Shown piece by piece: positions 29,982 through 31,401 of a DNA stretch of 64,000 bases. This DNA is from Methanobacteriota archaeon (GTDB taxonomy: Archaea > Halobacteriota > Bog-38 > Methanoflorentales > Methanoflorentaceae): NCBI GenBank assembly GCA_963720465.1, contig OY970393.1, positions 1,760,001-1,824,000 on the forward strand. The letters run 5' to 3'. The position numbers were made by a program, and so were the translations under genes. How positions within the stretch are numbered: the stretch's first letter is position 1; every line of letters starts with the position of its first letter. The notes beneath the pieces are model-generated. The model ran no database searches, had not been told where the DNA came from, and saw nothing but the letters and a program-made list of their open reading frames with translations.

Positions 29982-30210
29982 TATATTCCCCTTACTATTT
30001 TTATCCGATAAATTATATTGACGATATAAATACGTTTTTAAATTATTTCGCCAATTTCCGTTCAGAAAGGCATTATTTTAATTATAGGCACATATTTATA
30101 TTATTTTTATATAAATGTGGCGGCTGCTTGCGACAAAAGCCTTTTATAGAGCGCTCATAATAGCGGGAGTATCTGTAGCATCCGCTGTGGCGCGCTATGG
30201 CATCTCGCGG

Positions 30211-30340
30211 GCCGGGGTGGCCTAGTAAGTTGTTGCATATAAGGCAGCGATCTAGACGGCTAAGGTGTCAGACTCATAGGGTATTCTGATACGACACCTG
30301 AGATATCTGAAGAGCGCGGGTTCAACTCCCGCCCCCGGCA
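30211..30340 (+). tRNA. tRNA-Met(CAU), elongator type, with introns at 30228-30257 (17/18) and 30279-30304 (37/38)
   Basis: Acceptor GCCGGGG/CCCCGGC, D-stem GCCT/AGGT, anticodon stem TCAGA/TCTGA, T-arm GCGGG-TTCAACT-CCCGC; both introns form BHB motifs; 74 nt after splicing. Confidence 0.92.
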
Positions 30341-30402
30341 TGCTCTATTCTTCGACCAATAGTTATATATGCCCAACTTTTCTATATAATTCTCAGATTT
30401 TT

Positions 30403-31401
30403 ATGGAGATTCGAAAGGTTCAACTTACTGGCAAATCGAGCTACACCGTTTCACTGCCCAAGGTTTGGGCCACGCAACTCGGTTTGAAGGAGAAGTCGCG
30501 AGTGGCGCTGTCAACGCTGCCTGACGGCTCGCTGCGGGTCACGCCTAACGAACACGTTAAGCCACAGGAACGTGGGGTTTTCAACATTGACGCCCTTTTT
30601 GACGAGGCCTTGGCACGCCACATGATTGCCATCTACATCGCGGGCTATGACACGTTCGAGCTTCGCGCTCAGAAGATTCGATCCGACCAGCGAGAGACGA
30701 TACGTGACATGTCCTACCGCCTCATTGGCATGGAAGTCGTCGAAGAGACCGCGAAATCGGTCGTAATACAGGATTTTCTAAGTCCTAATGAGCTGCAAGT
30801 CAAAAAGTCTATTAGGAGAATGCACCTCATCATCGAGTCGATGCTCGCCGACGCCATAAAATCGCTGCTGAAAAATGATATCGACCTCGCTAGTGACGTC
30901 ATAGTGAGAGATCGCGACGTGGATCGCCACTATTTGCTCGTGCTCAAACGGCTGCAAGAGATGGTCACGACCCCATTTTCGGAGGGTTCAGACATTGCCG
31001 CAAACGAGAGTCTTGAGTACTACCTCACCGCCGTCTCACTCGAGCGAATCGCCGATCACGGGACTAAAATAGCGCGCTGCGTGCTGACGTTGGCAGGAGG
31101 ACCAGTCCCTGAAGAGGTGCGCAACAGCATAAACGAGGCGAGTATCCTGTCAAATACCGTCGTACAGCTCGCGATGGATGCGCTTTCAAAACTTGATACG
31201 AAGCTTGCCGAGGAGGCTATAAGCGCAAAGGGCAGACAGACACCTATCCTTAAACGTCTGGAAGAGATGACGCTCGACCTAGATGCTCACGTAGCGCTGC
31301 CAATATACTGCATCATCACCAGTATTGACCGGGTTGCCGACTATGGGATGAACATAGCCGAGGTTGCCATCAATCTCGCAGTCGCAAAGTCGAATCGGTA
31401 A
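30403..31401 (+). CDS. AbrB-domain / double-PhoU phosphate regulator
   Basis: RKVQLTGKSSYTVSLPKxW plus two ER/DR-xADH/Y PhoU motifs. Confidence 0.9.
   Translation: MEIRKVQLTGKSSYTVSLPKVWATQLGLKEKSRVALSTLPDGSLRVTPNEHVKPQERGVFNIDALFDEALARHMIAIYIAGYDTFELRAQKIRSDQRETIRDMSYRLIGMEVVEETAKSVVIQDFLSPNELQVKKSIRRMHLIIESMLADAIKSLLKNDIDLASDVIVRDRDVDRHYLLVLKRLQEMVTTPFSEGSDIAANESLEYYLTAVSLERIADHGTKIARCVLTLAGGPVPEEVRNSINEASILSNTVVQLAMDALSKLDTKLAEEAISAKGRQTPILKRLEEMTLDLDAHVALPIYCIITSIDRVADYGMNIAEVAINLAVAKSNR

Follow-up and report, generated by a model that had tools for sequence, protein, structure and literature searches.

Bulge-helix-bulge (BHB) introns at non-canonical positions, or several of them in a single gene, have been described for tRNA genes of the Thermoproteales, Nanoarchaeum, Korarchaeum, ARMAN and the Asgard archaea, and among the Euryarchaeota for M. 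kandleri and M. thermautotrophicus (PMC4033280). In reviews, Euryarchaeota possessing a splicing endonuclease of the alpha4 or alpha'2 type are credited with introns in less than 10% of their tRNA genes, one per gene and at position 37/38 only (PMC4090602), and alpha2-bearing archaea other than Korarchaeum are stated to lack non-canonical introns (PMC4033280). The locus considered here, at positions 30211-30340 on the + strand of a 64,000-nt stretch of the archaeal contig OY970393.1 (the window), is a tRNA(CAU) gene in three exons of 17, 21 and 36 nt. It is read as the elongator tRNA-Met, with one intron in the D-loop and a second at the canonical site in the anticodon loop. The host belongs to an uncultured, class-level lineage of the Halobacteriota, represented exclusively by metagenome-assembled genomes (MAGs) from peat, bog and fen.

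The pre-tRNA-Glu(UUC) of M. kandleri is likewise euryarchaeal, carries introns both at 37/38 and in the D-loop, and has both of them removed by the archaeal splicing endonuclease; its D-loop intron, however, forms a relaxed HBh' motif and is met by an (alpha-beta)2 enzyme, in contrast to the strict hBHBh' motif and the alpha'2 enzyme of the present host, and the alpha'2 enzyme of A. fulgidus did not remove the M. kandleri D-loop intron efficiently (PMC5829648). Further differences lie in the tRNA (Met), the site (17/18) and the branch of the phylum, the host being a mesophilic peat methanogen. The multi-intron genes of the Thermoproteales, TACK, DPANN and Asgard archaea resemble the host gene in combining non-canonical with canonical BHB introns and in being missed by default finders, whereas their enzymes are of the (alpha-beta)2, epsilon2 or loop-bearing types, many of their motifs are relaxed, and intron sequences recur between genes, a mark of transposition (PMC4033280; PMC4090602; PMC8450103; 10.64898/2026.10.13.758758). 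In the host genome no second copy of intron 1 was found; a blastn-short search with both introns and their motifs returned their own locus and chance matches of 11-13 nt only. Neither the (alpha-beta)2 enzyme with its Crenarchaea-specific loop nor the relaxed motifs by which a Thermoproteales-type system is recognized were found in the host enzyme and the tRNA-Met gene; the gene works like such a system and is not a member of it.

Position 17/18 is absent from the intron positions listed in PMC4090602, the fuller catalogues (Sugahara 2008; tRNAscan-SE 2.0 Table S7) lying outside this comparison. A search for literature combining the lineage name Bog-38 with the word 'intron' found none. A canonical intron at 37/38 is known from elongator tRNA-Met genes of Euryarchaeota, for example in Haloferax volcanii, and it is the single intron of those genes. 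Intron 2 of the host gene occupies the same site, which is shared by six of the seven tRNA-Met genes recovered from other families. The gene is of a known kind; what is new is the lineage, a class of the Cluster-II type of methanogens, the tRNA concerned, the 17/18 site as far as the list in PMC4090602 goes, the occurrence of an intron outside the canonical position in a host whose alpha'2 enzyme is unmodified, and the richness in introns of the tRNA set to which the gene belongs.

Gene anatomy and excision product

The coordinates of the exons, the introns and the helices of both motifs are compiled in the table. A reading from the sequence alone, without database searches (below, the sequence-only reading), had described two introns of 30 and 26 nt at 17/18 and 37/38, and this observation together with its interpretation was confirmed at the level of sequence and of the predicted product. 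A geometry script, which demanded four base pairs in the central helix and, on either strand, a bulge of three bases, set each cut behind the second base of the bulge and counted the outer and inner helices, returned 4 central, 4 outer and 8 inner base pairs for intron 1, just as that motif had been drawn, and 4, 5 and 3 for intron 2, whose canonical character and pairing had been described correctly too. In both introns the bulges comprise exactly 3 nt, and both are strict hBHBh' motifs, including closing helices h and h' of at least 2 bp.

Excision of both introns leaves 74 nt, called tRNA-Met(cat) by ARAGORN, with a cloverleaf energy of -30.8 kcal/mol. The cuts restore the D-loop AGTAGGCTA with G18 and G19, as had been expected, and its length equals that of AG(C/T)TGGTTA in uninterrupted relatives. 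On inspection of the spliced sequence, the partners of the tertiary contacts U8:A14, G15:C48, G18G19 and U54:A58 are all present, and the anticodon loop CTCATAA has the regular 7 nt, with CAU, U33 and A37; the CCA end is not encoded in exon 3. The fold of BHB 1 requires an unfolded D-arm, because the motif takes up G10-C11, opposite G19-C20, and C12-U13, opposite the intron, a refolding that the sequence-only reading had anticipated.

Features of the two-intron tRNA-Met locus and of two further intron-bearing tRNA genes (positions in the window; genome positions are marked C1)
Feature	Position	Strand	Remarks
Putative BRE/TATA element, AAAAG CCTTTTATAG	30135..30149	+	about 60 nt upstream of the tRNA 5' end; conserved in 13/13 upstream alignments of genus g1
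Exon 1	30211..30227	+	acceptor 5' strand, U8, G9, D-stem 5' strand GCCT, D-loop A14-A17 (AGTA)
Intron 1, 30 nt, D-loop 17/18	30228..30257	+	inner hairpin and 3' strand of the BHB 1 central helix
Exon 2	30258..30278	+	G18 G19 to A37: GG CTA, D-stem 3' strand AGGT, G26, anticodon stem TCAGA, loop CTCATA
Anticodon CAT of tRNA-Met	30275-30277	+	within exon 2
Intron 2, 26 nt, canonical 37/38	30279..30304	+	predicted cuts, as for intron 1, after the second base of each bulge
Exon 3	30305..30340	+	A38, TCTGA, variable loop AGAGC, T-arm GCGGG/CCCGC with loop TTCAACT, acceptor 3' strand, discriminator A73
BHB 1, entire	30218..30262	+	fold incompatible with the mature D-stem
BHB 1 outer helix TGGC/GCTA	30218-30221 / 30259-30262	+	
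BHB 1 central helix CTAG/CTAG	30222-30225 / 30252-30255	+	
BHB 1 bulges, 5' TAA and 3' ACG	30226-30228 / 30256-30258	+	
BHB 1 inner helix GTTGTTGC/GCAGCGAT	30229-30236 / 30244-30251	+	
BHB 2, entire	30268..30310	+	outer helix is the anticodon stem
BHB 2 outer helix TCAGA/TCTGA	30268-30272 / 30306-30310	+	anticodon stem
BHB 2 central helix CTCA/TGAG	30273-30276 / 30299-30302	+	
BHB 2 bulges TAG and ATA	30277-30279 / 30303-30305	+	
BHB 2 inner helix GGT/ACC		+	
tRNA-Ile(GAU), only copy	C1:262787-262894	+	missed by ARAGORN; 33-nt intron in the D-stem 3' strand, about 23/24
tRNA-Ser(CGA)	C1:523649-523784	-	miscalled 'Gly(ccc)' by ARAGORN; two non-canonical introns

Conservation, identity and alternative readings

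The gene is very probably the single functional elongator tRNA-Met(CAU) of its genome, with both introns spliced out, an assignment built on conservation, on the tRNA complement of the closed genome and on the predicted product. In the species-level genome set the host class comprises 24 genomes, which form one family of two genera. A survey of relatives, one of the checks put forward with the sequence-only reading, recovered the intron in the family: when 41 relatives were searched at the DNA level, 18 family genomes, the window's own included, matched over the full length of the gene and its two introns, which amounts to 18 of the 24 class genomes and to 5/5 of those that are at least 90% complete; the six without a match are MAGs of 60-78% completeness. 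The eight matches from other families start downstream of intron 1 in every case. Seven of them are tRNA-Met genes with an uninterrupted D-loop, of which six have the 37/38 intron and one has no intron, and the eighth is a different tRNA.

An exact pattern for the interrupted D-arm, run against 185,579 species genomes, retrieved 17 records, which represent the same family genomes. Two of these records, with a tRNA-Met identical to that of the family genomes, come from MAGs that bear the titles 'Acidiferrales bacterium' and 'Bathyarchaeia archaeon'; the contigs concerned are probably mis-binned. A looser pattern (D-stem, 25-55 bases, anticodon stem and CAT), applied to a sample of 401 genomes of the phylum, matched the 18 family genomes and 0/377 others. 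The corresponding control for an uninterrupted gene (8-24 bases) matched 26/89 non-family and 0/12 family genomes, and since it detects roughly three in ten foreign tRNA-Met genes, the negative among the 377 loses weight to that extent. The interrupted pattern was present in 43 contigs among 241 million metagenome records, and the exact pattern of an intron-less junction of exon 1 with exon 2 gave no match.

The 18 genomes and 38 of the 43 metagenome contigs yielded 36 distinct full-length genes for alignment. Their exons are nearly invariant (in exon 1, columns 1-16 are invariant and column 17 is at least 90% conserved) and their intron loops vary freely, with lengths of 29-33 nt for intron 1 and 26-30 nt for intron 2. 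Standard pairs occupy 98.1% of the 1440 cells of the proposed helices, vs 35-47% if the partners are slid by 1-3 columns. All eight central pairs are paired in 36/36 sequences; pairing reaches 100% in the outer helix and 93.1% in the inner helix of intron 1, where seven pairs vary on one side (via G-U) and one pair is changed on both sides, from U-A to A-U, in seven sequences. It is proposed that the D-loop intron goes back to an ancestor shared by both genera of the class and that it has since been kept by the need to remain a substrate with a strict BHB.

The same alignment bears on the reading that the canonical intron alone is spliced, the 30-nt insert staying in the mature tRNA, where it would enlarge the D-loop by an additional hairpin. 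The inner hairpin is indeed stable (end-pair probability 0.86-0.97), and an Asgard preprint notes that software output displays unannotated insertions as enlarged D-loops. Retention, however, would part A14-A17 from G18G19 and set the insert in competition with the D-stem over C12 and U13. No variation is seen in the flanking CTAG/CTAG helix or in either 3-nt bulge, which correspond to the exact requirement of the endonuclease, and a length of 29-33 nt with an unconstrained loop is a better fit to a spliced spacer than to a functional arm. A retained hairpin is very unlikely.

The identity of the gene follows from comparison with the other CAU genes of the host genome, a single closed contig of 2.31 Mb with 51.7% G+C that encodes McrA. 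A second elongator tRNA-Met, which the sequence-only reading had named as an observation that would speak against it, was not found in this closed genome with ARAGORN -i and a scan for T-arm and acceptor sequences. Archaea have 46 standard anticodons, and with the same two methods all 46 are covered only if the window gene is included; as the sole elongator tRNA-Met it would have to be functional. The anticodon by itself does not discriminate between elongator, initiator and the tRNA-Ile2 whose CAU reads AUA after agmatidine formation, and TiaS is encoded in the genome, such that an assignment of the window gene to Ile2 or to the initiator deserves consideration. Initiator tRNAs are recognized by A1:U72 and three G-C pairs at the bottom of the anticodon stem. 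One of the two other CAU genes carries A1:U72 and a GGG/CCC anticodon stem and is for this reason taken as the initiator; the remaining one is Ile2-like because it is identical to the spliced tRNA-Ile(GAU) at 59/75 positions, vs 47/75 for the window gene. The window gene itself has G1:C72 and an A-U-rich anticodon stem, TCAGA/TCTGA, the initiator features being absent, and its exons match, in D-arm and anticodon stem, the uninterrupted tRNA(CAU) genes of 26/89 other genomes of the phylum. That it is the Ile2 or the initiator species is highly improbable.

That standard tRNA finders may miss the gene had been predicted, and this holds for ARAGORN and for Rfam. Default ARAGORN reports no tRNA gene across the 64 kb of the window; with -i the 130-nt gene is miscalled 'tRNA-Gln(ctg)' with a 47-nt intron, and in the genome-wide run the locus supplies the 3' end of a supposed 'tRNA-Leu' whose intron would measure 792 nt. 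Rfam gives no match in the whole window at the gathering score, and at E<=1 on 30100-30460 a T-arm match alone, to the tmRNA model. A dedicated routine for non-canonical introns exists in tRNAscan-SE (PMC8450103). The rejection by default finders, and the fact that spliced RNA was not seen, would also be in accord with a decaying or silent copy in which the insert is junk that is never removed. This is extremely improbable in view of the points that stand against it: the closed genome offers no other candidate for the elongator, the exons are invariant in 36 distinct sequences of two genera while the intron loops drift, the promoter-like block is conserved, and an intron-less allele was not found by the exact junction pattern in the 241 million metagenome records.

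The BHB geometry is in itself common when G-U pairs are counted, so that the motif alone proves little and the weight comes from elsewhere: on both strands of the window there are 20 sites with an outer helix of at least 4 and an inner helix of at least 6 bp (two with an inner helix of at least 8), compared to 14 on average when 20 first-order Markov simulations were run with G-U allowed. What cannot be chance is the combination: excision restores both a canonical D-loop and a canonical anticodon loop, the genome would otherwise lack the gene, and relatives share the arrangement. Within the 130-nt gene there are five strict-type candidates; all combinations of up to three were tried, and ARAGORN recognized a tRNA-Met from the chosen pair only. 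Its sole other product, a 79-nt 'Tyr(ata)' built on the intron-1 hairpin by removal of bases 46-96 with a weak BHB-like geometry (outer 2, inner 3), was rejected, and its chances are practically nil, in that its would-be anticodon loop falls on the least conserved columns of the alignment, ATA is no standard archaeal anticodon, and the genome would be left without an elongator tRNA-Met.

Several points weigh against the assignment as a spliced elongator tRNA-Met or limit it. The isotype was derived by elimination and from general identity rules, without an isotype-specific model. Assembled contigs from four metatranscriptome runs of four studies (22 runs listed, 18 of them RNA) were compared with 30000-30600; RNA contigs 90-95% alike, from relatives, cover the unspliced gene, with no joints reported; as contigs drop rare forms and such libraries may contain DNA, this speaks neither for nor against splicing or expression. 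The double-BHB fold has an energy of -46.1 kcal/mol (-47.4 constrained) vs -51.3 for the minimum free energy structure, which differs from the BHB fold, and the central pairs of BHB 1 have a probability of 0.02-0.07 because an alternative register, C12-G48, competes. The covariation is modest, with a double-sided change in one pair only; the central and outer helices are invariant and for that reason uninformative either way, and the metagenome search pattern itself imposed the central CTAG. The mismatch with the minimum free energy structure was not weighed against the model, because the energy model penalises bulges; a low predicted stability is common for BHB motifs, which are stabilised by the enzyme, though it lends the model no support.

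Splicing enzymes and a proposed route of maturation

Both matches to PF01974 in the genome lie within one open reading frame (ORF) of 345 residues that adjoins the gene of tryptophanyl-tRNA synthetase. It contains two tRNA_int_endo and two tRNA_int_endo_N domains, and there are no separate genes for alpha or beta subunits. The best solved relative is the alpha'2 endonuclease of A. fulgidus (2GJW/1RLV; E about 6e-34 over residues 23-332), with which it aligns in full length and shares the same two tandem repeats; it differs in its N-terminal, non-catalytic repeat, which is longer by about 11 residues. The catalytic Tyr/His/Lys residues are located in the C-terminal repeat, which aligns to the A. 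fulgidus enzyme nearly gap-free, with a 3-residue gap at query positions 229-234 followed by one gap of a single residue, and no specificity loop (CSL/L1 or ASL/L2) is seen near the catalytic His in this alignment. In comparison with seven enzymes from other families of the phylum, which have the same architecture, no lineage-specific insertion was found that could explain the richness in introns; the insertion of about 11 residues in the N-terminal repeat is common to all seven and is hence no lineage-specific loop. The host endonuclease can be regarded as being of the ordinary alpha'2 type, the outcome of the enzyme check that had been put forward with the sequence-only reading, and by analogy to the A. 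fulgidus enzyme it would form a homodimer and cut strict BHB motifs only. RtcB is present as well (560 bits).

Enzymes of the alpha'2 type depend on a strict BHB whose bulges have 3 nt, the loops by which other types attain a broad range being absent from them (PMC12397907; PMC5829648), and the archaeal EndA reads the motif and not the body of the tRNA, such that splice sites are 'transplantable' (PMC4090602). From these two properties it follows that a strict BHB in the D-loop should be cuttable by the host enzyme. The link drawn in the sequence-only reading between a euryarchaeal endonuclease and strict motifs is borne out by an mcrA-bearing member of the Halobacteriota with an alpha'2 enzyme and two motifs that are both strict. 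There are strong grounds to infer that splicing is carried out by this endonuclease together with RtcB, as far as the gene content and the motifs can tell.

A route of maturation can be envisaged along these lines. Transcription from the gene's own putative promoter, for which the conserved block upstream of the gene (see the table) is a candidate by the archaeal promoter consensus, would give a precursor of at least 130 nt. Its D-arm would remain unfolded, U8-C11 pairing with G19-A21 and C12-G15 with the last CTAG of intron 1 to form a strict hBHBh' motif, and a second strict BHB would form independently on the anticodon stem. The single alpha'2 endonuclease would then cut after the second base of all four bulges, and RtcB would ligate the three exons and probably circularise both introns. 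Once spliced, the D-stem and the contacts of G18G19 with the T-loop could form, and RNase P, RNase Z and the CCA-adding enzyme would complete the ends. The start of transcription, cleavage, ligation and the order of these steps are in this scheme deduced from the sequence elements and from the enzymes encoded.

Two observations concern the flanks of the gene. Between the TATA-like block and the tRNA, positions 30150-30210 show good conservation among members of the genus (AGCGCTC.TAATAGCGGGAGT is an example), which exceeds what would be expected of a mere leader. In two RNA-library runs of different studies, a relative's contig ends at 30130 and 30371 and runs into adapter letters. These ends bracket a leader of about 80 nt and a trailer of 30 nt and could hint at the ends of the precursor, with the reservation that contigs cannot show ends.

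Further tRNA introns and significance

Genome-wide, ARAGORN made 21 intron calls, of which five are spurious, with 'introns' of 488-1148 nt. In twelve of the 21, the called site has a central helix of 4 bp together with 4 or more outer base pairs, and four are mislabelled or ambiguous, namely Thr-GGU and Ala-CGC, which by inspection both have an insert after the anticodon, Ser-CGA, with its inserts in the D-arm and the variable arm, and Ser-UGA (left as ARAGORN called it). Mislabelling affects Thr-GGU ('Ser aga'), Ala-CGC ('Phe aaa') and Gln-UUG ('Stop tta'). If tRNA-Met and tRNA-Ile(GAU) are counted, about 18 of about 49 tRNA genes bear introns; for Methanocella paludicola 4/48 and for RC-I 5/54 were reported (PMC3146512).

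At least four introns of the genome are non-canonical: that of tRNA-Met at 17/18, that of tRNA-Ile(GAU) at about 23/24, and those in the D-arm and in the variable arm of tRNA-Ser(CGA). In the intron of tRNA-Ile(GAU) the central helix of 4 bp includes two G-U pairs, which are Watson-Crick in relatives, the inner helix covaries, and the contiguous outer helix amounts to 1 bp. The D-arm intron of tRNA-Ser(CGA), 17 nt in length, has the central helix GGAC/GTCC and bulges TAA and CAA, a contiguous outer helix being absent; the 32-nt intron in the loop of the variable arm is family-specific and strict, with 4 central, 5 outer and 2 inner base pairs. Because their contiguous outer helices comprise 0-1 bp, both D-arm introns look like relaxed HBh' motifs. 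Each of the two genes is conserved in 21/23 other genomes of the family. The position of the Ile(GAU) D-arm intron recurs in two genomes of other families, and a longer version of the Ser(CGA) D-arm intron is found in two genomes of another family. As single-copy genes for essential tRNAs, tRNA-Ile(GAU) and tRNA-Ser(CGA) would have to be freed of these D-arm introns by splicing. That the D-loop intron of tRNA-Met reflects a wider expansion of tRNA introns throughout the lineage, a class with an ordinary alpha'2 endonuclease only, can be put forward only tentatively, and the balance is somewhat on the doubtful side.

The neighbours of the tRNA-Met gene encode a ribose-5-phosphate isomerase, a protein of 130 residues without a Pfam match, and a regulator with AbrB and PhoU domains; no Pfam match to an integrase or a homing endonuclease was obtained in the three neighbouring ORFs that were scanned. 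In the mechanical list of reading frames, the downstream ORF (30340-31401) begins at the discriminator base, 30340; its conserved start is the ATG at 30403, which is preceded by the TATA-like TTTCTATATAA, and its product, with AbrB/MazE-like and PhoU domains, is syntenic in both genera. Elsewhere in the genome, two tRNA-like pieces on the + strand (C1:359380-359514 and C1:721630-721721) combine good 3' halves, T-arm and acceptor, with degenerate 5' parts, the 3' half of the former being a copy of that of tRNA-Val(GAC); both may be remnants of the attachment sites of integrated elements.

On the practical side, an elongator tRNA-Met, a tRNA-Ile(GAU) and a tRNA-Ser(CGA) are likely to be recorded as absent when genomes of these abundant peat methanogens pass through annotation pipelines, and tRNAs hidden in this manner can lower estimates of completeness and mislead inferences on codon usage or on the genetic code. 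As an essential single-copy tRNA with a class-wide D-loop intron and a strict motif, the locus represents a clean counter-example to both review statements quoted at the outset, and it supports the view that the strictness of the motif, and not its position, sets the limit for alpha'2 enzymes. If the D-arm introns of tRNA-Ile(GAU) and tRNA-Ser(CGA) are spliced, either alpha'2 enzymes handle in vivo relaxed motifs of the sort on which the A. fulgidus enzyme was inefficient in vitro, or the D-stem supplies the missing helix across the junction; should a lineage-wide expansion be true, either outcome would revise the accepted link between the type of endonuclease and the repertoire of introns.

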